The translations under genes were made by a program, and so were the position numbers. A stretch of DNA of 6,915 nt from a virus (taxonomy: Duplodnaviria > Heunggongvirae > Uroviricota > Caudoviricetes), in the IMG/VR virus record IMGVR_UViG_3300000059_000098, positions 1 through 6,915 of that record; one strand, 5' to 3'. How positions within the stretch are numbered: the first letter of the stretch is position 1; each line of letters starts with the position of its first letter. Below are positions 1-6,915 of this stretch, one piece after another. The notes beneath the pieces are model-generated. The model saw only the letters and a list, made by a program, of their open reading frames with translations, did no database searches and was not told the DNA's origin.

Positions 1-777
1 AGTGCCGCCAGCTTCGCTTCCCAACGCAGCAACATGCGGTGATTTTGCCTGTGCAACCTTTTCCATTGCCGCAGACGTACTTTCGGTATATTCAATCTTC
101 CAGTGCGGATAACGATTAAGGAATTTGCTGCATTGCTGGAATGGCTGCGGATGGCTGTAGACCGTATTGATGGTGGATAAATCAGTAGTGCCGGAGACCA
201 ACAAACAATGGTCGATAGTTAACGTCATCTCGCCAACAATCGACAAGCTGGTATGTTGCAGCAGATCGTAAACGTCGTTTATGGCACCGGAGCTGGTATT
301 TTCAATCGGTACGACGGCATAGTCGGCCTGGCCGGTTTCCACCTGATTAAAAATATCGGCAAATTTGGCGCAGCCACTTTCAATGAATTGCTCAAAGTGA
401 CGGGCAGCATACTGGCGCGCCGCAAGATGGGAATAAGAACCTTTGGGGCCGAGAAAAGCGATGCGTGCTGAGTGCGGATTAATTTTATTGAGATGTTGCT
501 GGAGCAAAGCCTGCTGAGTTAATACGGAATCTTCAATGATGAGCTGGAACAGGCGAGTAATGTAATGGGCGTCCAGATGGTGCGCTTTACCGAGCGTAAT
601 TAATCTTTCCAGCAAATCGCGTTCACGATCAATATCACGTACCGGGCGATGCGAGAGCAGTTTGGCTTTTCCCACCTCGACGGCCAGTTCGCGCCGCTCT
701 GCCAGTAATGCTAATAATTTTTCATCCAGCGCGCTGATTTTCTCTCGCAGCGCCAGTAACGGGTTTTCCGATGTCAT
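1..777 (-). CDS. pheA: Chorismate mutase / prephenate dehydratase PheA, N-terminal 259 codons (C-terminus lies beyond the left edge)
   Basis: Minus-strand frame is open from the ATG (reverse complement of 775-777) to position 1. Translation begins [41 protein letters not shown] and reaches ...[20 protein letters not shown] at the edge, which I recognise as enterobacterial PheA. Absent from the ORF track because there is no in-window stop. Confidence 0.95.
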
Positions 778-798
778 AGTGTTGCCTTTTTGTTATCA

Positions 799-828
799 AT
801 AAAAAAGGCCCCCCGATTTGGGAGGCCT
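799..828 (-). terminator. pheA attenuator terminator (leader hairpin plus U tract)
   Basis: GC-rich inverted repeat ggcccccc (807-814) / gggaggcc (820-827) with a 5-nt loop; on the minus-strand transcript it is followed by a run of U (plus-strand A-run 801-806), directly between pheL and the pheA start. Confidence 0.8.
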
Positions 829-875
829 TATTGTTCGTCTTCGCATTCTGTTTCACACGACGAAACGCCTCCCAT

Positions 876-923
876 TCAGGGGAAGGTAAAAAAGAATGCG
901 AAGAAAAACGGTGTGTGTTTCAT
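876..923 (-). CDS. pheL: phe operon leader peptide, 15 aa, [15 protein letters not shown], seven Phe codons
   Basis: Minus-strand ATG at 921-923, stop TGA at 876-878; Phe-rich leader immediately upstream of the attenuator hairpin and pheA. Too short for the ORF track. Confidence 0.9.
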   Translation of the reverse strand: [15 protein letters not shown]

Positions 924-939
924 GTTTGTTTCCTTAAGT

Positions 940-980
940 GACTTTAGTACAGTACCCGTACTGTTTTCACGCTGTCAACA
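940..980 (-). promoter_or_regulatory. pheL-pheA promoter region
   Basis: Consensus -35 TTGACA on the minus strand (plus 973-978) about 50 nt upstream of the pheL ATG. The -10 element is not confidently assigned; candidates lie around 949-956. Confidence 0.55.
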
Positions 981-983
981 AAA

Positions 984-1001
984 AACGCGCCCGAAGGTGC
1001 G
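984..1001 (-). terminator. Terminator-like hairpin insulating the pheA promoter from transcription coming from the integrase side
   Basis: Minus-strand RNA would read CGCACC-UUCG-GGCGCG followed by UUUUUU: a 6-bp stem with one A/C mismatch, a UUCG tetraloop and a U6 tract. Confidence 0.35.
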
Positions 1002-1005
1002 TTGT

Positions 1006-1091
1006 AAAACCCACTGAATTCAATGTTTTCCCTTTGTTTTCAGTGGGTTTTGTTATTGGTGGGGGTTACTGATTACCCTATAAAACCCACT
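1006..1091. repeat. Inverted and direct repeats of AAAACCCACT between the host promoter and the integrase stop; candidate att junction or integrase/IHF binding sites
   Basis: aaaacccactgaa (1006-1018) is the exact reverse complement of ttcagtgggtttt (1039-1051), a 13-bp perfect inverted repeat around a 20-nt spacer. A third direct copy, aaaacccact, lies at 1082-1091 and overlaps the integrase stop codon. Confidence 0.45.
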
Positions 1092-2080
1092 TATGTGGAT
1101 GAAATGTGGATGCCTCCTTTTAACGGATTAAGTGAAATTGCATCCTGGAGGAAATCAGGAGCGAGGTGCGCATAGGTCATAGTTTGCTGGATCGTGGCGT
1201 GCCCCATAATTCGCTGGAGCGTAAGTATATTTCCTCCATTAATCATAAAGTGAGCTGCAAAGGTATGGCGTAGAACATGTACAGCCTGTCCTTTTGGTAG
1301 GTCAGGCTTAACACTGCGGAGCACCTTGCGATATTCCTCATAATTGACGTCAAACAAAAGGCCGGATTTCTTTGTTTTGATCTCGCTAACAACTTCATCA
1401 GAGACAGGAATAATTCGAACTTTTCCGTTTTTAGTTTTGTTAAACGTCACGCGGTTATTGATGATGTGTTCCGCGCGCAGATTTTTCGCCTCTCCCCATC
1501 TCGCACCAGTACTGAGACAAAGTAGCGTAATCCGCCGGGCATCACCGCTTACTGCATCCAGTAATTTGGCGATTTCTTCCGTGGTGAGATACGTCATTTC
1601 GGGTGATTTTCGTTTCAAAGAGGGGAGGGCGCGGAGCGGATTTTCTCCGTGAAATTCCCCGGCATTTGTCAGGAGTGTAAACATTCCTCCGAGATCCGAC
1701 TCATCACGCCGAACAGTAGACTCTTTTACTCCCAAGGATAAACGGGAGCTTCGATAAGCGGCCATGAAACGAGCATTAATCTGGCTAACCCTTGGATCAT
1801 TCATTTCTTTGATGATTTTTTTCAACCTGGTTAGAACGCCGTTAGCATATGGCTTATTGCGTCCACCCAATTCCCACCATAACGGAAGCAGATCTGAGAG
1901 ATGACGTTGCTCTGTTGGTTTTTCAAGCCATTCCTTATCGTGCATGTGGCTGAGAACATAACGCTCAAAGGCCACTGCATCTGCCTTTTTCTTAAAAATC
2001 CGCTGAATCCGACGTCCACTTCGGCCACGCGGTCTAACATCCACTTTATACCGTCCACCATCGAGCGCTTTAATTGCCAT
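1091..2080 (-). CDS. int: Phage tyrosine integrase, P2 Int-like (329 aa from MAIKALDGGRYKV...)
   Basis: Complete minus-strand ORF. Tyrosine-recombinase catalytic residues are visible in order: TGARWGEA (Arg), HVLRHTF (His-x-x-Arg), and MTYAHL (Tyr) near the C-terminus. The N-terminus MAIKALDGGRYKVDVRPRGR resembles P2 Int as I recall it. Start chosen at 2080 because GGAGGG lies 8 nt upstream; the track's ATG at 2113 has no Shine-Dalgarno sequence. Confidence 0.9.
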   Translation of the reverse strand: MAIKALDGGRYKVDVRPRGRSGRRIQRIFKKKADAVAFERYVLSHMHDKEWLEKPTEQRHLSDLLPLWWELGGRNKPYANGVLTRLKKIIKEMNDPRVSQINARFMAAYRSSRLSLGVKESTVRRDESDLGGMFTLLTNAGEFHGENPLRALPSLKRKSPEMTYLTTEEIAKLLDAVSGDARRITLLCLSTGARWGEAKNLRAEHIINNRVTFNKTKNGKVRIIPVSDEVVSEIKTKKSGLLFDVNYEEYRKVLRSVKPDLPKGQAVHVLRHTFAAHFMINGGNILTLQRIMGHATIQQTMTYAHLAPDFLQDAISLNPLKGGIHISST

Positions 2081-2146
2081 TGGCAAGCCCTCCGGTGAAA
2101 CGAGGAAAGACATTTCCAGTTTGTAAAACGTAAGAATAATAAAGGG

Positions 2147-2449
2147 TTAACCAATTTTCCTTTCGGATGGGGGTAAATCCGTTGGTTCTTGCCCATAGTG
2201 TGCGAGAGCCGGAGCTATCTGCCCGGATTCAGGCGCAATTTTTCCAGTCATAAACCACAACGCATATTTCTCAAATCTGGGGTTATTTAGTATTTGCTCA
2301 ATTACTTCAGCATTAGGGATGGTTTTACCGCTTTCATATCTCCACAGAGCATCACGGTTTAAACCAAGCATTTTTGCTGTATCCGGGAGGCTAGTAAGTC
2401 TCTCGCTTTCACGCATGATTTTTATGCGTTCTCCAATAGTCATACGCAT
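2147..2449 (-). CDS. C: P2 C-type immunity repressor (about 100 aa, HTH)
   Basis: Minus-strand ORF upstream of and co-oriented with int. Translation MRMTIGERIKIMRESERLTSLPDTAKMLGLNRDALWRYESGKTIP...FEKYALWFMTGKIAPESGQIAPALAHYGQ matches my recollection of the 99-aa P2 C repressor in length, HTH position and the C-terminal IAPESGQIAPALAH segment. Start set at the first ATG (2449), which has GGAGAA 7 nt upstream; the track starts at a TTG at 2464. Confidence 0.8.
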   Translation of the reverse strand: MRMTIGERIKIMRESERLTSLPDTAKMLGLNRDALWRYESGKTIPNAEVIEQILNNPRFEKYALWFMTGKIAPESGQIAPALAHYGQEPTDLPPSERKIG

Positions 2450-2544
2450 GTTGCAATTCTCCAACGTCTGTATTAATGTTTATACAAATGAGTTTGATTT
2501 GGGGCATCCGTCGCAAGAAATACCCCAAACAGGGAGATTATCAC
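2450..2544. promoter_or_regulatory. Divergent switch region between the repressor (leftward) and cox (rightward); expected Pc/Pe promoters and operators
   Basis: 95-bp AT-rich intergenic region between divergent genes. A candidate rightward promoter is TTGCAA (2451-2456) with ATTAAT 16 nt downstream (2473-2478). A 7-bp inverted repeat tttgggg (2498-2504) / ccccaaa (2523-2529) sits just upstream of the cox ribosome-binding site. Operator assignments are not resolved. Confidence 0.5.
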
Positions 2545-2871
2545 ATGAATGAAGAACTATTGAGGGCATTGTTTAAGATCCCAGACCCCATCACCGTCGA
2601 TGAGTTTTCCCGCCGCACAGGTAAGACCGAATCAGCCGTAAGAAAGTTGGTAGAGCGTCGACTCATCCCTCTAACTACTGAGCGCGAGGTTTTAGGCGAG
2701 GAAGGGAGTTCGCGCCGTCTTCTCATCCTTTGGAATGAGTGGCTCGAAATGGTCTATGACGCAACGAAACAGCTTCCTCCTGAGCGTAAAGATTGGCGCA
2801 ATCACTGGCTTAAGAAAGCCAAGAAGCTGGCGGAAGATTTGGGATTAGGCTTTCTTAATTTTGCTGCATGA
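2545..2871 (+). CDS. cox: Cox-like excisionase / early-promoter regulator (108 aa)
   Basis: ATG at 2545 with AGGGAGA 7 nt upstream; first gene of the rightward operon, divergent from the repressor as in P2. The segment ITVDEFSRRTGKTESAVRKLVERRLIP resembles the Cox/excisionase HTH, and later ILWNEWLEMVY and PPERKDWRNHW resemble corresponding P2 Cox segments (from memory). Confidence 0.65.
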   Translation: MNEELLRALFKIPDPITVDEFSRRTGKTESAVRKLVERRLIPLTTEREVLGEEGSSRRLLILWNEWLEMVYDATKQLPPERKDWRNHWLKKAKKLAEDLGLGFLNFAA

Positions 2872-2889
2872 GATGCAGGGAGTTTTGAT

Positions 2890-3231
2890 ATGAAACAGCA
2901 ACGTAATTCACGCTTTCGTAATGGTGCTGAACGTCACGCTAACCGTTTCGCTACCAGTGCATCACGCAGCAACATCCGCTACAGCCTGAGCGATACACAC
3001 GCAACGCCGGATGGCTACCCTGTAAAACAAATCGGTGAGCATGCCTGGCTGATTGAAAAAGCTGGAATCGTGGTCCACAAATGCCCACGCAATCCGTTTA
3101 CCGGAAACCGCATTTTTGCATTGAGCTGCGGCGACAATCAGTTCGGGCAGGATTTCACATTATACGAAGCACTTCGCACGGTTGATCGTCTGCTTCGCGG
3201 ACAAAGTTTTATTAAACAGGTTGATTTATAA
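2890..3231 (+). CDS. Hypothetical protein, 113 aa, basic N-terminus
   Basis: ORF with AGGGAG 7 nt upstream of the ATG, 18 bp after the cox stop. No motif I recognise. Confidence 0.7.
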   Translation: MKQQRNSRFRNGAERHANRFATSASRSNIRYSLSDTHATPDGYPVKQIGEHAWLIEKAGIVVHKCPRNPFTGNRIFALSCGDNQFGQDFTLYEALRTVDRLLRGQSFIKQVDL

Positions 3232-3241
3232 CAGGTGATTT

Positions 3242-3520
3242 ATGACCAAAGAGTATGCACAAGGTGTATTTATCCGTTTTATTGATTTTCGCGGTGAACT
3301 GTTGTTACGTGCATCAGCTATTGATGCTGTAGCCCAGGCAGAAAAAAAAGCAGTTACTCACGTTTATGCGAACAACGCGCAACTGATCGTGGAGCTTCCG
3401 TACCAGACTGTACGTGAAGCCATTAGCGAAGCTGAAAAGGCACGTCAGATTAATAGCGATGAACCATACATCGAAATTATCTGCATGGATTCAAAAGCAG
3501 AAATCCAGAAGGCAGATTAA
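3242..3520 (+). CDS. Hypothetical protein, 92 aa
   Basis: ORF 10 bp after the previous stop with a GGTGA Shine-Dalgarno-like sequence; the same strand and tight packing support it as coding. Confidence 0.7.
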   Translation: MTKEYAQGVFIRFIDFRGELLLRASAIDAVAQAEKKAVTHVYANNAQLIVELPYQTVREAISEAEKARQINSDEPYIEIICMDSKAEIQKAD

Positions 3521-3531
3521 AGGGCGTTGCA

Positions 3532-3774
3532 ATGGACCAGGAATACAAAACTCTCGTCAATAAAGCACTTGAGCGCTTTCATTTTCGCATAAGCGCATCA
3601 GGCACTCATGCTGAGCTCGCAGCCCGAGAGTCATTGACCAGGGCCATCAAGAGTATATACGACACAGCTTTTTACATTGACGACCCGGACGCGCTCGACG
3701 AGCTTTCCATACTCGTCTGCGCCGCAGAAAACGGGGACCATATTGAGCCATATAAACTGGGGAATATTGCATGA
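3532..3774 (+). CDS. Hypothetical protein, 80 aa, acidic
   Basis: ORF 11 bp after the previous stop; its stop overlaps the start of the next small ORF (ATGA). Confidence 0.7.
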   Translation: MDQEYKTLVNKALERFHFRISASGTHAELAARESLTRAIKSIYDTAFYIDDPDALDELSILVCAAENGDHIEPYKLGNIA

Positions 3775-3884
3775 GTATATTTATCTCATGGCTTGTTCTG
3801 ATTATTTCGGTGGCCTGCGCCATTGGGATTATGCGAATTATTCATTCAGTAAAAAAGATTGAACGCTTTTTCACTGGTGAATAA
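3771..3884 (+). CDS. Small hydrophobic membrane peptide, 37 aa (MSIFISWLVLIISVACAIGIMRIIHSVKKIERFFTGE)
   Basis: ATG at 3771 overlaps the stop of the upstream gene (ATGA), with GGGGAA 7 nt upstream. It has one predicted transmembrane helix followed by a basic tail. Below the ORF-track size cutoff. Confidence 0.5.
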   Translation: MSIFISWLVLIISVACAIGIMRIIHSVKKIERFFTGE

Positions 3885-3977
3885 CGATACAAATAAAACA
3901 TCAAATTAAATAAGAAAACGTGAAAACCATCCGTATTAACGGAGGTATTCGCACACGAAAATAACGGAGATACAAAA
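3885..3977 (+). promoter_or_regulatory. AT-rich intergenic region with direct repeat TAACGGAG x2; possible internal promoter or regulator site
   Basis: 93-bp non-coding gap inside an otherwise tightly packed operon. TAACGGAG occurs at 3937-3944 and 3963-3970; the second copy supplies the Shine-Dalgarno sequence for the ORF at 3978. Confidence 0.25.
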
Positions 3978-4388
3978 ATGCACGCAAAAGAAGAAGGTAT
4001 CATCAGAGCACTGAAAGAAATTTCAAAGACAGAAAACGAAGTAGCGAAAAAAGCCATAGCAAATAATCATATGGACGTCGCAACCCACACACTGATAGTC
4101 GCAAGAGTCACGGCAGAAGCAGCCGAAATTATCGCACAACAGGATGCTGAACTGGCGGTTCTCAGAACACAACCAGTCACCGGACTGGATTTGTCTAACA
4201 CCGGACGCCTTATTTACACAATTGGCTCGGAGCTACAGCGATACACCATTATCGCCGGGTTACAGGATAAATACCTGATCACTCCTCACCCCATAAGGGA
4301 ATCAGAAATTCTGACAAATCTCCGCCTGATAGAGCGCTCTCAAGTCGCATTCATTGATGACGCACAGTGCACCGTATTTAACGCATAG
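3978..4388 (+). CDS. Hypothetical protein, 136 aa
   Basis: ORF with GGAGA 7 nt upstream. No motif I recognise. Confidence 0.75.
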   Translation: MHAKEEGIIRALKEISKTENEVAKKAIANNHMDVATHTLIVARVTAEAAEIIAQQDAELAVLRTQPVTGLDLSNTGRLIYTIGSELQRYTIIAGLQDKYLITPHPIRESEILTNLRLIERSQVAFIDDAQCTVFNA

Positions 4389-4411
4389 GGTTACTGGACA
4401 AAGGGGGCGCA

Positions 4412-4615
4412 ATGGCAATTAAGCATTTTCCCGTCGTTCGCTTTACCTCCAGAGGGCGCGAATACGAGGTCGACGAACGCCTGATTACCACTATCGACAA
4501 ACATCGTTCGGAAAAGGATGCACACCACATCTACCTCACTGACGGCACTTACTTCTGCGCCACGAATGTGGTGCGGGTGAACCTTATCCGACAGGTACAG
4601 GAGTCACGCAGATGA
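4412..4615 (+). CDS. Hypothetical protein, 67 aa
   Basis: ORF with AAGGGGG upstream; first of six consecutive genes that each overlap the next by ATGA. Confidence 0.7.
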   Translation: MAIKHFPVVRFTSRGREYEVDERLITTIDKHRSEKDAHHIYLTDGTYFCATNVVRVNLIRQVQESRR

Positions 4616-4878
4616 CCATTCTGGACTATATCGCTACTCATCCGGGTTGTAGCGGCGGAGAAATCGCCGCAGCACTGAATACTCCAACCACAGCCATTAA
4701 TGCTGAGTTACGCCGACTTTGGCGCAGCGGCTTAGTCATCAGAACAAACCGCAGCACAGGTGGTCACGCTCGCAAAACAGGAGGCCGGGCTTCTTACCAC
4801 GTAAACCCGATGCCGTTCGGGTGTGGCAACCCACTAACCCACATGTTTAACCAGCTACTGAAGGAAGCCAGAGCATGA
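4612..4878 (+). CDS. Small predicted winged-helix DNA-binding protein, 88 aa
   Basis: ATGA overlap with the upstream gene; AGGAG 8 nt upstream. The segment GEIAAALNTPTTAINAELRRLWRSGLVIRT looks like a helix-turn-helix plus wing. Fold assignment is by eye only. Confidence 0.7.
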   Translation: MTILDYIATHPGCSGGEIAAALNTPTTAINAELRRLWRSGLVIRTNRSTGGHARKTGGRASYHVNPMPFGCGNPLTHMFNQLLKEARA

Positions 4879-4997
4879 GCACCATCAACCACCAGGAACC
4901 ACGCGAACTGGCGACTGCCGTACAAAGAATGTCTACCCAAAAATCACTGCCATTCCGTGTGAGCCCTGTCCGACGGGTACAGGAGTCACACGGATGA
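4875..4997 (+). CDS. Small ORF, 40 aa (MSTINHQEPRELATAVQRMSTQKSLPFRVSPVRRVQESHG)
   Basis: ATGA overlap at both ends; AAGGAAG 7 nt upstream. Its C-terminus and 3' end duplicate those of the 67-aa gene. Below the ORF-track size cutoff. Confidence 0.45.
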   Translation: MSTINHQEPRELATAVQRMSTQKSLPFRVSPVRRVQESHG

Positions 4998-5212
4998 ACA
5001 GAAGGAGAATTACACGCAGACATCGCCGCACGCGCCTGAGCTCCCCGCCAACACTAAAGGAACTCATTCAAAGCGAGATCGGTGATTTCTTCGCTGGGTT
5101 TGGATCACCTAGCGAACCAGAAACACCAGAAGCGATGCAGCGCGAACTCATGATGCGCATCGATAACGTTTTTGACTTTTTCCTGAATAACAAAAGAGAG
5201 CAACCGACATGA
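4994..5212 (+). CDS. Hypothetical protein, 72 aa, arginine-rich N-terminus (MNRRRITRRHRRTR) and acidic C-terminal half
   Basis: ATGA overlap with the upstream gene; AGGAG 8 nt upstream. Confidence 0.65.
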   Translation: MNRRRITRRHRRTRLSSPPTLKELIQSEIGDFFAGFGSPSEPETPEAMQRELMMRIDNVFDFFLNNKREQPT

Positions 5213-5421
5213 ACGAAAAGACCTGGTTTCGCGCATACATGTGGGCGCTGGTATGCGTCCTCTTTTCTCTCATTCTGTATGCGGGACTACTCCCCCGAAT
5301 GATTTCATCAGACAGCTCCTTCCTGGTATTGCTGGGCATTTTTGTCGCCTTGCTGTACCCGGCGGGCGTTGTCCGCTTTTTCAGTAACTACATCAAAGCA
5401 ACTATGGAAACCAAACAATGA
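5209..5421 (+). CDS. Small integral membrane protein, 70 aa, two predicted TM helices
   Basis: ATGA overlaps at both ends. Hydrophobic segments WALVCVLFSLILYAGLL and FLVLLGIFVALLYPAGVV. Confidence 0.7.
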   Translation: MNEKTWFRAYMWALVCVLFSLILYAGLLPRMISSDSSFLVLLGIFVALLYPAGVVRFFSNYIKATMETKQ

Positions 5422-6242
5422 AAAAACTATTACCACTCATCCCTCTCCTGATGACCACACTTCTGGTTGGCTGTGACCGCGTGGAGCCGGGCAATGTAGG
5501 CATCAAAGTCAACAAACTGGGCGACGACAAAGGCGTCGGTGAAGTGGTTGGCGTTGGCCGCTACTGGACAGGCTGGAATACCGAGGTTTACATCTTCCCG
5601 ACCTTCAAACAAATGAAGACCTACGATGAGCCGTTCAGCTTTCAGATGAGTGACGGCACAACCATCGGCTATCACATCGGTGTGGCCTACAAGGTTGATC
5701 CATCCAAAGTTACTACAGTGTTTCAGACCTACCGCAAAGGCGTGGATGACATTACCGACACTGACCTGCGCCAGAAGATCGCCGATGCACTCAACCGACT
5801 GGCCAGCAAAATGACCACCGATAAGTTTATCGACGGTGGTAAGTCTGAACTGCTGGACTCAGCACTTAAAGATATTCAGGAAGAGATGACCCCCATCGGC
5901 ATTCAGGTCATGAGCCTCTCTTATGTCGGTAAACCGGAATATCCGCCAACCGTTATTGACAGCATTAACGCCAAAGTCACGGCAAACCAGAAAACCCTGC
6001 AACGCGAACAGGAAGTCAAGCAACGCGAAGCAGAAGCCAACATGCTGCGCGCAGAAGCTGCCGGACAGGCTGATGCCATTCGCACAAAAGCCCAGGCTGA
6101 AGCCGACGCCATTCGTTTACGCGGTGAAGCTCTGCGCCAGAATCCCGGCGTTATGGAGCTGGAAGCAATCAACAAATGGAACGGCACGCTGCCGCAATAC
6201 ATGACCAGCAACACCGCTGTTCCGTTTGTTCCGGTGAAGTAA
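5418..6242 (+). CDS. SPFH / band-7 (stomatin-prohibitin-flotillin-HflK/C) domain lipoprotein, 274 aa
   Basis: The N-terminus MKKLLPLIPLLMTTLLVGC-D has a signal peptide with lipobox LVGC and Asp at +2, predicting an inner-membrane lipoprotein. The body has SPFH-like composition and ends in an Ala/Glu/Arg/Gln-rich coiled-coil-like tail, as in HflK/HflC-type proteins. Confidence 0.85.
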   Translation: MKKLLPLIPLLMTTLLVGCDRVEPGNVGIKVNKLGDDKGVGEVVGVGRYWTGWNTEVYIFPTFKQMKTYDEPFSFQMSDGTTIGYHIGVAYKVDPSKVTTVFQTYRKGVDDITDTDLRQKIADALNRLASKMTTDKFIDGGKSELLDSALKDIQEEMTPIGIQVMSLSYVGKPEYPPTVIDSINAKVTANQKTLQREQEVKQREAEANMLRAEAAGQADAIRTKAQAEADAIRLRGEALRQNPGVMELEAINKWNGTLPQYMTSNTAVPFVPVK

Positions 6243-6248
6243 TTAAAC

Positions 6249-6273
6249 CCGGCCAGTGAAAATCGCTGGCCGG
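6249..6273 (+). other. Stem-loop after the SPFH gene (8-bp perfect stem, 9-nt loop)
   Basis: ccggccag (6249-6256) / ctggccgg (6266-6273). A T6 run follows only at 6287-6292, so it is not a canonical intrinsic terminator. Confidence 0.3.
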
Positions 6274-6319
6274 AGCAGTATCAGGATTTTTTAGTATGCC
6301 GTTCTCACAAAAAAACCGC

Positions 6320-6349
6320 TTGCCATGCCTCAATAGGTCAGGTTACATT
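6320..6349 (+). promoter_or_regulatory. Candidate promoter for the antisense-RNA / icd-like transcript
   Basis: TTGCCA (6320-6325), 18-nt spacer, TACATT (6344-6349). A moderate match only; placed just upstream of the first sense target block. Confidence 0.3.
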
Positions 6350-6380
6350 TCCGCTGCACCTCATAAAACGGGTGCCGGGA

Positions 6381-6404
6381 TTCTCAACCCGACACAGAGC
6401 AAAG
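6381..6404 (+). promoter_or_regulatory. Upstream sense target pair (a1/b1-like) for the c4-like RNA
   Basis: ttctcaac (6381-6388) and agagcaaag (6396-6404) are exact reverse complements of gttgagaa (6524-6531) and ctttgctct (6510-6518). Confidence 0.4.
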
Positions 6405-6410
6405 CGCATA

Positions 6411-6431
6411 ACCGCGCAAGCGGTTTTTTTG
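6411..6431 (+). terminator. Short hairpin with GCAA tetraloop and U7 tract; possible terminator or attenuator
   Basis: accgc-gcaa-gcggt followed by ttttttt (6425-6431). The 3' arm can alternatively pair long-range with accgcttgc at 6315-6323. Confidence 0.35.
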
Positions 6432-6471
6432 TGCGTACTGTATCGCCACGTCTTTTTCGCGTCAGAATTAT

Positions 6472-6547
6472 GGCGGGGCGTACGGGGCCGACTTTGGTCG
6501 GGCCGGATTCTTTGCTCTCCGGTGTTGAGAACCCTGTACGTCTCGCC
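6472..6547 (+). ncRNA. Candidate c4 / CI-type antisense immunity RNA (76 nt)
   Basis: ggcggggcgtacgggg (6472-6487) pairs with ccctgtacgtctcgcc (6532-6547) as a 16-bp closing stem with three G-U pairs. Inside are a 5-bp hairpin (6488-6501) and a second hairpin (6503-6507 / 6518-6522) whose loop carries ctttgctc, followed by single-stranded gttgagaa. These two segments are exactly complementary to two sites repeated upstream (6381-6404) and at the RBS of the downstream ORF (6557-6601). Confidence 0.45.
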
Positions 6548-6556
6548 ACCCCGAGA

Positions 6557-6602
6557 TTCTCAACTCTGGATGGTGAGTTATTTCTATCACCGAGCAAAGA
6601 GG
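6557..6602 (+). promoter_or_regulatory. Downstream sense target pair (a2/b2-like) overlapping the ribosome-binding site of the 76-aa ORF
   Basis: ttctcaac (6557-6564) and gagcaaagag (6592-6601); the second block covers the AAGAGG Shine-Dalgarno sequence at 6597-6602, 7 nt before the ATG at 6610. Confidence 0.4.
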
Positions 6603-6609
6603 CCACACC

Positions 6610-6840
6610 ATGGCAAACCGCAAACAGCACCGCGCTATCGCGGAGCGTCGTCACATCCAGACTGAAATCAACCGCAGACTTTCCCGCGCATTCCGCGTCG
6701 CTAAAATCATGCACATCAATATGTTGCATGAGCGTAGCTGCGAACTTTCAAACCTCTATTCATCCGCTGTTTTCAGCTATCTGGCGGATGATCTGCGCGA
6801 GCTTCAGCAGCTCATTCAGCAGCAAAACAAACTCCATTAA
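6610..6840 (+). CDS. Small basic protein, 76 aa; possibly an Icd-like first gene of an antirepressor operon
   Basis: ORF with a strong AAGAGG 7 nt upstream. Its position directly after a c4-like RNA and its target sites parallels the P1 c4-icd-ant layout. Functional assignment is by context only. Confidence 0.6.
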   Translation: MANRKQHRAIAERRHIQTEINRRLSRAFRVAKIMHINMLHERSCELSNLYSSAVFSYLADDLRELQQLIQQQNKLH

Positions 6841-6915
6841 TTCCTGTTCCGGGCCTTTCCTGCACCTTGCGGCGGGAGGCCTTCGCACATCTGTAGTAAA
6901 GAGGATTGCCGCAAT

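Follow-up and report, generated by a model that had tools for sequence, protein, structure and literature searches.

The DNA analysed here, referred to as the window, is a stretch of 6,915 nucleotides that comprises positions 1 to 6,915 of IMG/VR record IMGVR_UViG_3300000059_000098, which is assigned to a virus of the class Caudoviricetes. Toward its 3' end lies a cassette of two overlapping genes. The upstream gene encodes a 70-amino-acid (aa) protein with two transmembrane (TM) segments, hereafter the partner, and the downstream gene encodes the 274-aa precursor of a lipoprotein with an SPFH (band-7) domain. The cassette and the parts of its products are arranged as follows.

5209-5421, + strand: program-listed open reading frame (ORF) of the two-TM partner, 70 aa
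5418-6242, + strand: program-listed ORF of the SPFH lipoprotein precursor, 274 aa (Pfam PF01145, PHROG 200)
5418-5474, + strand: lipoprotein signal peptide MKKLLPLIPLLMTTLLVGC, with lipobox LVGC and Cys19 as the predicted acylated N-terminus of the mature protein
5478-6038, + strand: SPFH domain, aa 21-207 (Pfam envelope and secondary structure of the model)
5946-6140, + strand: long single helix, aa 177-241, the counterpart of the CC1 wall helix in cage-forming SPFH proteins, aligning with the helix of HflK
6165-6239, + strand: conserved C-terminal tail, aa 250-274 (alignment of 143 sequences; low model confidence)
6249-6273, + strand: GC-rich hairpin of 11 bp, 7 nucleotides past the stop codon of the SPFH gene (-22.4 kcal/mol, z = -4.2)

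The TGA stop codon of the partner gene (5419-5421) and the ATG start codon of the SPFH gene (5418-5420) share the tetranucleotide ATGA. This overlap confirms both the ORF pair and the translational coupling that had been proposed in an initial annotation made from the letters of the window. Four such start/stop overlaps (at 4875, 4994, 5209, and 5418) link a MarR-type gene, two small ORFs, the partner gene, and the SPFH gene into a translationally coupled chain in which the pair comes last. Because the two ORFs overlap in ATGA, their products would be made together, probably in similar amounts.

The SPFH protein begins with MKKLLPLIPLLMTTLLVGC followed by DRVEPG. Its N-terminus has the organization of a bacterial lipoprotein and predicted substrate of Lgt and LspA, in which an MKK n-region precedes the segment LLPLIPLLMTTL and the lipobox L-V-G-C; Cys19 is followed by Asp20 at position +2 and Arg21 at position +3. 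The lipobox pattern applied was [LVI][ASTVI][GAS]C, located after a positively charged n-region and a hydrophobic h-region. Thus, the lipoprotein signal with Asp at +2 that the initial annotation described can be read directly from the sequence. Residues 21-207 match Pfam Band_7 (PF01145) along positions 2-176 of the 176-position profile (E=5.5e-31; 108.4 bits against a cut-off of 23.6), which places the proposed SPFH identity far beyond chance. The protein also matches PHROG 200, a family named 'lipoprotein' (E=1.5e-111).

Conservation was assessed in an alignment of 143 SPFH sequences that are 33-93% identical to the window protein. An AlphaFold model computed with a 143-sequence alignment reached a predicted local distance difference test score (pLDDT) of 80.1 and superseded a single-sequence model (pLDDT 48) that was unusable. 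In the alignment-based model, a beta-rich SPFH1-like part (aa 19-93) is followed by an alpha/beta SPFH2-like part (aa 95-174) and by one continuous helix of 65 residues (aa 177-241), for which block-mean pLDDT is mostly 84-91. Ala, Glu, Arg, and Gln make up 54% of this helix compared with 15% of the remaining mature protein, in line with the long coiled-coil-like tail noted at the outset. Beyond residue 241, the model contains a short helix and then the tail. W254, G256, P259, and P269 of the tail are invariant and F270 is nearly so, yielding the motif A-I-x-K-W-[ND]-G-x-L-P ... P-F, and the tail is a candidate cap or oligomerisation element. Invariant residues of the protein cluster in F-P-T-F (aa 60-63) and in W254-x-G256-x-x-P259 ... 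P269-F270; these clusters are plausible membrane-contact and cap elements.

A Foldseek comparison of the model with the PDB returned full-length matches headed by HflK (7vhq_E; E=7e-14), followed by HflC, prohibitin, erlin, stomatin, flotillin, and QmcA. The matches to HflK, HflC, prohibitin, erlin, and stomatin have E values around 1e-13, and that to QmcA has an E value of 3e-8. The model and these full-length matches together reveal the architecture of cage-forming SPFH proteins, with SPFH1, SPFH2, long helix, and C-terminal tail in that order. The nearest solved relatives by sequence and by fold are HflK and HflC, and matches in NCBIfam are limited to HflC, HflK, and FloT. These likenesses, together with an SPFH domain that is predicted to face the periplasm as it does in HflK/C, speak for a rival explanation in which the phage protein mimics HflK/C and gates the host protease FtsH. 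Its cage would surround FtsH on the periplasmic side or keep it out, altering the turnover of membrane or regulatory substrates, comparable to the action of lambda cIII and HflKC on cII. However, the similarity to HflK/C amounts to 24-26 bits against cut-offs of 134-159 (TIGR01932, hflC, 25.7 against 134.4; TIGR01933, hflK, 23.5 against 159.4; NF008181, 20.7 against 660), and identity in the structural alignment is 17%. Moreover, where HflK/C has two SPFH genes the window has one, a lipid anchor replaces the N-terminal TM helix, and there is no evidence of a surface for contact with FtsH. We consider gating of FtsH to be unlikely.

Hydropathy analysis of the partner reveals two TM segments, the number that had been proposed, at aa 10-28 and 37-55. 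The loop P-R-M-I-S-S-D-S-S separates the two segments, TM2 contains a proline, and the C-terminal tail is rich in Lys and Arg. The protein matches PHROG 1130, named 'membrane protein' (E=5.6e-22). Pfam contains no family that matches the partner or any of 120 partner relatives, and NfeD gave no match at E<=0.01. The suggestion that this SPFH protein comes with the usual type of membrane partner therefore stands with respect to the presence of a partner but not with respect to its family. RseC_MucC was considered as an identity for the partner and rejected; the match scores 16.7 bits against a threshold of 24.4, covers the TM region only, and is not seen in relatives. Aligned partners share TM1, the loop motif P-x-[ML]-[IV]-S-x-x-[SD]-[ST], the proline-bearing TM2, and the basic tail. 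Based on the positive-inside rule, both termini of the partner are predicted to be cytoplasmic (N-in/C-in), which would leave the conserved loop facing the periplasm, the same compartment as the predicted SPFH domain.

Of 83 related loci, 82 have the partner gene as the immediate upstream neighbour of the SPFH gene. The viral-contig relatives behind this count are at least 93% identical; more diverse pairs come from annotated phage records and from a separate search for contigs that encode relatives. Phage-plasmid-type and larger viral contigs encode an SPFH protein that is ~94% identical to that of the window, whereas their partner is only ~48% identical. The pair, complete with loop motif, was also found in the Erwinia N4-like phage S6 (gp044/gp045), the Yersinia pestis plasmid pMT1, Burkholderia phage phiE125 (gp44/gp43), a Stx2 phage, a Pseudomonas chlororaphis prophage, and a Kaistia prophage. 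Thus, a partner gene directly upstream is seen in phages of alpha-, beta-, and gammaproteobacteria; in Salmonella phage KE23, one gene intervenes between the motif-bearing gene and the SPFH gene. Two small ORFs upstream of SPFH genes lack annotation in their phage records.

3765-3953, + strand, Stx2d phage Stx2_112808 (locus L089): partner ORF of 62 aa with the motif VPFLISMKDT, upstream of a gene labelled 'serine protease'
2432-2650, - strand, Salmonella phage PhiSH19 (locus L096): two-TM ORF of 72 aa that overlaps the start of the SPFH gene

The product name 'serine protease', which also appears in P88, Klebsiella, and Kosakonia records, is unsupported by profile searches and apparently reflects a propagated misannotation. 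A 'superinfection exclusion protein' annotated upstream of the SPFH gene in PhiSH19 was discarded as a lead, as it is a soluble, acidic protein of 106 aa that has no family support and is not an immediate neighbour of the SPFH gene.

Single polypeptides of 320-390 aa that join the two proteins make up at least 16 of the 150 best representative clusters (set labels P0244, P0250, P0255, P0257, P0259, P0263, P0265, P0266, P0284, and others, with P0286, P0288, P0289, P0291, P0329, and P0339 as further members). The order within these natural fusions is a partner with the same loop motif, a basic linker rich in Lys and Arg, a signal-peptide-like segment with a lipobox, and the SPFH domain. Retention of the internal lipobox raises the question of whether signal peptidase II cleaves the fusions into two proteins. 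Natural gene fusions of this kind are a classical indication that the partner and the SPFH protein act together, and their topology is compatible only with an SPFH domain in the periplasm. More distant clades, represented by phages TL, CcrSwift, and PhiSH19, have a different small membrane ORF in this position, and in Staphylococcus Kayvirus, the SPFH protein MbpS is encoded beside the small membrane protein MbpV (PMC7150955). Small membrane proteins thus seem to accompany phage SPFH genes as a rule.

Several features of the family indicate that the SPFH protein likely resides on the periplasmic face of the inner membrane. Among close relatives, 105 of 116 contain a lipobox; the residue at +2 is Asp in 100 of these and Glu in the other 5. 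A lipobox is also present in 95 of the 124 diverse representatives for which the start of the domain could be located; the +2 residue of the diverse representatives is Ser, Thr, Asp, Gly, and others. Such variation in the wider set would be predicted if Asp were an adaptation to the enterobacterial sorting rule. A basic residue at +3 belongs to the family consensus C-x-[KR]-V-x-P-G. As described in PMC6469965, the 'strong' signal for Lol avoidance consists of Asp at +2 without an adjacent basic residue, usually with Asp, Glu, or Gln at +3. Thus, of the earlier proposal that Asp at +2 retains the protein in the inner membrane, the residue is present and the location is backed by relatives, but Arg at +3 weakens the argument from position +2 alone.

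The backing from relatives is separate from the +2 rule because it comes from signal-anchor variants, lipobox-less relatives with TM segments, and fusions. In abundant close relatives (set labels P0060-P0064, P0106, and P0114-P0120), a Tyr, Trp, or Phe takes the place of the lipobox Cys, whereas the hydrophobic N-terminus is retained. These copies could not be lipidated and would be held by an uncleaved signal anchor. The change from Cys to Tyr requires a single base, and the larger clusters of Cys variants apparently belong to phage-plasmids of ~110 kb. Some representatives that lack a lipobox still have an N-terminal TM segment, and the fusions place the SPFH domain after three TM segments. 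The layout of the fusions fits a cytoplasmic C-terminus of the partner and a periplasmic SPFH domain, since the K/R-rich linker sits between TM2 and the signal peptide.

The cassette is embedded in a prophage, as the initial annotation had proposed. The genes that precede it in the window are as follows.

1 to ~1000: host DNA (pheA), which the prophage adjoins
799-924, - strand: pheL Phe leader (132 bits)
1091-2113, - strand: tyrosine integrase (profile search)
2147-2464, - strand: C-type helix-turn-helix (HTH) repressor (profile search)
2476-2871, + strand: Cox (profile search)
4612-4878, + strand: MarR-type winged HTH protein, upstream of the pair

Profile searches of the window placed DUF4761 and several small ORFs between Cox and the MarR-type gene. 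The order of genes in phage P88 (Peduoviridae, Xuanwuvirus) is int-C-cox-...-membrane protein-lipoprotein-derepression protein-A, and the lipoprotein, P88 gp12, is 100% identical to the SPFH protein of the window from residue 17 onward. In an Escherichia coli prophage with a 99.8%-identical pair, the pair is followed by genes for replication endonuclease A, ParM, Ogr, portal, and terminase. The window, P88, and this E. coli prophage thus all have the pair in the interval that separates cox from replication gene A. The element that hosts the cassette is a P88-like, P2-family (Peduoviridae) prophage of Escherichia, and the pair lies inside its cox-to-A early operon. The E. coli prophage is inserted beside pdxB and has a different integrase, whereas that of the window is beside pheA. 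The top full-length match among 5426 complete E. coli genomes reached only 96.1%. The pair is an accessory module, because the P2-like relative vB_EcoM-569R5 lacks it and carries other genes at the same position.

This setting bears on the concern, raised with the initial annotation, that the SPFH gene might be a chromosomal housekeeping gene, for example a YqiK-like one, that merely adjoins the element; a copy of QmcA or HflK/C was considered as well. Shared membership in a Pfam family is all that favours such an origin. The pair is internal to the prophage, between cox and gene A, and its SPFH protein is the same as that of P88 from residue 17. Just 576 of the 5426 complete E. coli genomes harbour matches, and plasmids account for 227 of the 641 matching places. 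Finally, the equivalog cut-offs for HflK and HflC are missed by more than 100 bits. We rejected the housekeeping copy, to which we assign a negligible probability.

The SPFH protein is widespread among phages; tblastn identified it in 623 phage records. Temperate carriers include P88, Stx2a- and Stx2d-converting phages (95.7% identity), and Burkholderia phages phiE125 and phi1026b. Homologues are also found in virulent groups, namely Schitoviridae, Vequintavirinae, Ackermannviridae, phiCbK-like Caulobacter phages, jumbo phages, and Kayvirus. The N4-like Erwinia phage S6 is among the virulent carriers. Remoter matches include MbpS of Staphylococcus Kayvirus and proteins of haloarchaeal viruses. 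Matches in plasmids comprise 674 records, 631 of which are non-mobilizable, and the plasmids that were sampled are phage-plasmids or Y. pestis pMT1. One of them, an 89-kb E. coli phage-plasmid, has genes for capsid, portal, and tail as well as ddrB, Icd, and lytic-replication genes. Among 1.84 billion cluster representatives, 216 clusters matched at E<=1e-30 and 2887 at E<=1e-3.

Both distant members that were placed in genomes are prophage-borne. The lambdoid prophage of P. chlororaphis has the order cI-like repressor, GerE, 82-aa ORF, SPFH, ..., integrase, and the Kaistia prophage has the order 81-aa ORF, SPFH, GpA-type terminase. The P. chlororaphis pair (locus L093, 4480-6828) lies two genes downstream of the cI-like repressor (HTH + Peptidase_S24) on the same strand, a layout that recalls lambda cI-rexAB and makes lysogenic co-expression in lambdoid carriers possible. 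In the Stx2 phage and the Pseudomonas prophage, the pair falls within the leftward block that runs from repressor to integrase. In lambda, the leftward early block is home to cIII, and a pair located there would suit gating of FtsH. FtsH is also universal in bacteria, which would suit the broad range of hosts. On the other hand, the module occurs in virulent phages, which make no decision between lysis and lysogeny. The spread over alpha-, beta-, and gammaproteobacterial hosts and over virulent and temperate phages implies a selectable, probably simple function at the inner membrane during infection.

When would the cassette be expressed? When the + strand from 2300 to 6320 was scanned with a promoter consensus, no sigma-70-like site emerged. 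Because of this result, the position in the operon, the ATGA chain, and the presence of the module in virulent phages, we propose that the pair is transcribed with the early lytic genes and not from the repressed prophage. The same absence of an upstream promoter, early-operon position, and virulent-phage homologues render doubtful the assumption of the initial annotation that the resident prophage expresses the genes. The context suggests expression in lytic development and does not favour a role in lysogenic conversion or in exclusion by a prophage-expressed product. At the other end of the cassette, a run of T residues lies 13 nucleotides beyond the 6249-6273 hairpin, which is possibly a terminator or a 3'-end stabiliser that closes the cassette. 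Comparable hairpins or terminators were found 3' of the gene in the Stx2, pMT1, CcrSwift, KE23, Kaistia, and P. chlororaphis copies. A moron, an autonomous cargo cassette of prophages, would have a promoter and a terminator of its own and be expressed in the lysogen; the cassette has a terminator-like hairpin, no promoter-like site upstream, and an ATGA link to the preceding early genes.

The hairpin, as in morons, is one of several features that would suit a lysogenic-conversion or virulence lipoprotein. Such a protein would be expressed from the prophage and sent to the outer membrane or vesicles, where it would act on an animal host as a TLR2 agonist or on the bacterial surface. Arg at +3 may weaken retention in the inner membrane, as this explanation demands. 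In Pasteurella multocida, PM0222 is reported to occur in outer-membrane vesicles and to activate TLR1/2, and its deletion to attenuate virulence (PMC9872710). The pMT1 proteins YPMT1.49c and 49Ac are part of a predicted Y. pestis virulence network (PMC3521224), in which YPMT1.49Ac may be the product of the adjacent small gene. However, PM0222 need not be homologous to the window family, the pair has no detected promoter upstream and lies inside a repressed early operon, and the module is shared with virulent phages of plant, soil, and water bacteria. Furthermore, the TM-anchored and fused variants must be inner-membrane proteins. We regard a virulence lipoprotein as very improbable.

Taken together, these findings lead us to propose the following working of the cassette. 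The 70-aa protein would span the inner membrane as a hairpin, its two termini cytoplasmic and its short, conserved loop periplasmic. Export and lipid modification at Cys19 would leave the 274-aa protein on the periplasmic face of the inner membrane. There, its long helix and C-terminal tail may allow it to oligomerise into a ring or dome around a patch of membrane, as do HflK/C, prohibitin, stomatin, and erlin. The hairpin partner would supply the transmembrane part, such that the pair represents a split version of a TM-anchored SPFH protein. We infer the cage and the contact between partner and SPFH protein from homology and gene fusion only. The resulting scaffold may condition or shield the inner membrane, protecting the infected cell from competitors or envelope damage; one example would be a block to genome entry by a second phage.

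T4 Imm and Sp are early proteins that block genome entry of a second phage. It is tempting to speculate that the cassette shields the inner membrane in a similar manner, most likely against genome entry by a second phage. This preference stems from the accessory nature of the cassette, its turnover among close relatives, and a predicted site of action that it shares with T4 Imm and Sp, yet we rate the effect as speculative and somewhat improbable. For the reading as a whole, in which phages use an early, accessory module to assemble an HflK/C-like scaffold with a shielding effect on the periplasmic side of the inner membrane, the chance of being right falls slightly short of even. This estimate combines high confidence in structure and organisation with low confidence in effect. 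A more specific version, in which a split HflK/C-type cage made of a lipid-anchored SPFH ring and a hairpin 'fence' is produced early in phages of many lifestyles on the periplasmic face of the inner membrane and captures or shields particular host machinery such as FtsH or genome-entry channels, strikes us as unlikely. If such a widespread two-component cage device, unrecognised so far, were real, superinfection exclusion or host takeover would gain a new mechanism, and the study of how SPFH cages act would gain a minimal, genetically tractable model.

A scaffold might instead stabilise the membrane or time lysis by reinforcing or compartmentalising the inner membrane and so preserving the proton-motive force until lysis, for example by buffering holin or pore-forming effectors of abortive infection. 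A general physical role of this type would account for the presence of the pair in very different hosts and lifestyles. Cellular SPFH proteins act in membrane stress and repair, one example being Bacillus subtilis YdjI with PspA (PMC8581546). In Kayvirus, mbpS lies between the endolysin and tgl lysis genes, beside a gene for a holin-like small membrane protein (PMC7150955). However, the pairs examined in proteobacterial phages are located in early or accessory regions rather than in lysis cassettes, the pair is dispensable in close relatives, and no link to a holin or spanin was seen. We therefore judge a role in membrane stabilisation or lysis timing to be decidedly unlikely; a general membrane stabiliser would still provide a convenient SPFH model.

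A number of observations weigh against the early, shielding scaffold that we favour. The consensus used in the promoter scan is crude, and an internal promoter could escape it. Asp20 of the SPFH protein is followed by Arg at +3, which weakens the argument from Lol avoidance. A Pasteurella prophage protein of the HflK/C-like SPFH type, which may or may not belong to the same family, has been reported in outer-membrane vesicles (PMC9872710). The pMT1 homologue YPMT1.49c appears in a Y. pestis omics network, hinting at expression from a resident element (PMC3521224). The partner is not universal: the LUZ24-like phage TL and phage CcrSwift have different upstream membrane ORFs with one and three TM segments, respectively, and the Vi01-like phage PhiSH19 has the unannotated 72-aa two-TM ORF listed above, which also differs from the partner and overlaps the SPFH start. 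PADLOC-DB v2 contained no family that matched either protein at E<=0.01. No functional study of phage SPFH genes in phage infection was found in the literature searched, and the reason for an SPFH lipoprotein in a phage genome 'remains unclear' according to a 2026 report (PMC13239085). Finally, the present data do not separate exclusion from protease gating, membrane stabilisation, or lysis timing, and the modulation of envelope proteases and the block to DNA entry suggested in the initial annotation are likewise guesses. The PHROG categories of the two proteins are 'other' and 'moron/host takeover', and neither protein falls into an exclusion family of that database.

The region 3' of the cassette has a distinct organization, with two small RNAs (sRNAs) in the 370-nucleotide gap that follows the SPFH gene.

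6320-6349, + strand: sigma-70-like promoter-like site that precedes both sRNAs
6356-6430, + strand: IsrK Hfq-binding sRNA (61.9 bits; gathering score 50)
6466-6553, + strand: C4 antisense RNA (77.6 bits; gathering score 45)
6610-6840, + strand: ORF of 76 aa of the 'derepression protein' family, after the sRNAs

This segment looks like an anti-repression cassette of the P1/P7 immI (c4-ant) or Gifsy-1 IsrK type situated in the early region of a P2-family phage. The IsrK match is flanked by a 28-nucleotide inverted repeat (6296-6323 and 6416-6443) whose arms are 86% complementary and 92 nucleotides apart. An ORF of 122 aa on the - strand (6361-6729) overlaps both sRNAs and is probably spurious.

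Within a large phage family that is already annotated, the SPFH gene is an unremarkable member. What is new is the conserved partnership, the loop motif, and the fusions, none of which is mentioned in the literature we found, and the picture they yield of a split, lipid-anchored module resembling HflK/C that serves many phages. The Kayvirus paper speculates that MbpS aids secretion (PMC7150955). Roughly one in ten complete E. coli genomes carries the module, which is also present in Stx2 prophages and in Y. pestis pMT1. Should exclusion or protease gating prove true, the cassette would represent a new class of mechanism for phage-phage competition or host takeover.

The cassette can be compared with several known systems. 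P. multocida PM0222, the SPFH protein of a prophage island and a vesicle-located TLR1/2 agonist, can be compared by description only. PHROG 200 and PHROG 1130 count the window proteins among their ordinary members; these families are annotations that carry no function. T4 Imm and Sp, P22 SieA, and HK97 gp15 are likewise small accessory proteins of the inner membrane or periplasm made early or from a prophage, and T4 Imm resembles the partner in being a small two-TM protein. No sequence relationship to these proteins was detected here and their systems have no SPFH scaffold, so that the likeness is functional speculation.

Closer comparisons are offered by cellular SPFH systems. SPFH proteins, including HflK/C, prohibitins, stomatins, flotillins, and erlins, form membrane cages whose role is debated. 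In SPFH-NfeD operons, such as those encoding QmcA and YbbJ (PDB 8z5g) or the archaeal stomatin PH1511 with PH1510, an SPFH gene lies beside that of a small membrane protein, as it does here. The partner in these operons has an NfeD/OB-fold and is encoded downstream, whereas that of the window lacks NfeD and is encoded upstream. QmcA also faces the cytoplasm, whereas the window SPFH protein would be exported. HflK/HflC (PDB 7vhq, 7wi3, and 9cz2) includes the top match by sequence among solved structures (HflK, E=1e-4), and the window protein shares with it the domain order SPFH1-SPFH2-long helix-C-terminal tail and a periplasmic SPFH domain, predicted in the case of the phage protein. Identity is ~17%, and there is no evidence that the window protein binds FtsH. 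HflK/HflC consists of two paralogous, TM-anchored subunits, whereas the window cassette is phage-borne and dispensable and combines one lipobox-containing SPFH gene with a 70-aa hairpin. Compared with HflK/HflC, phages thus keep a stripped-down SPFH system that comprises one gene, a lipid anchor, and a membrane partner of 60-80 aa that is sometimes fused to the SPFH protein.

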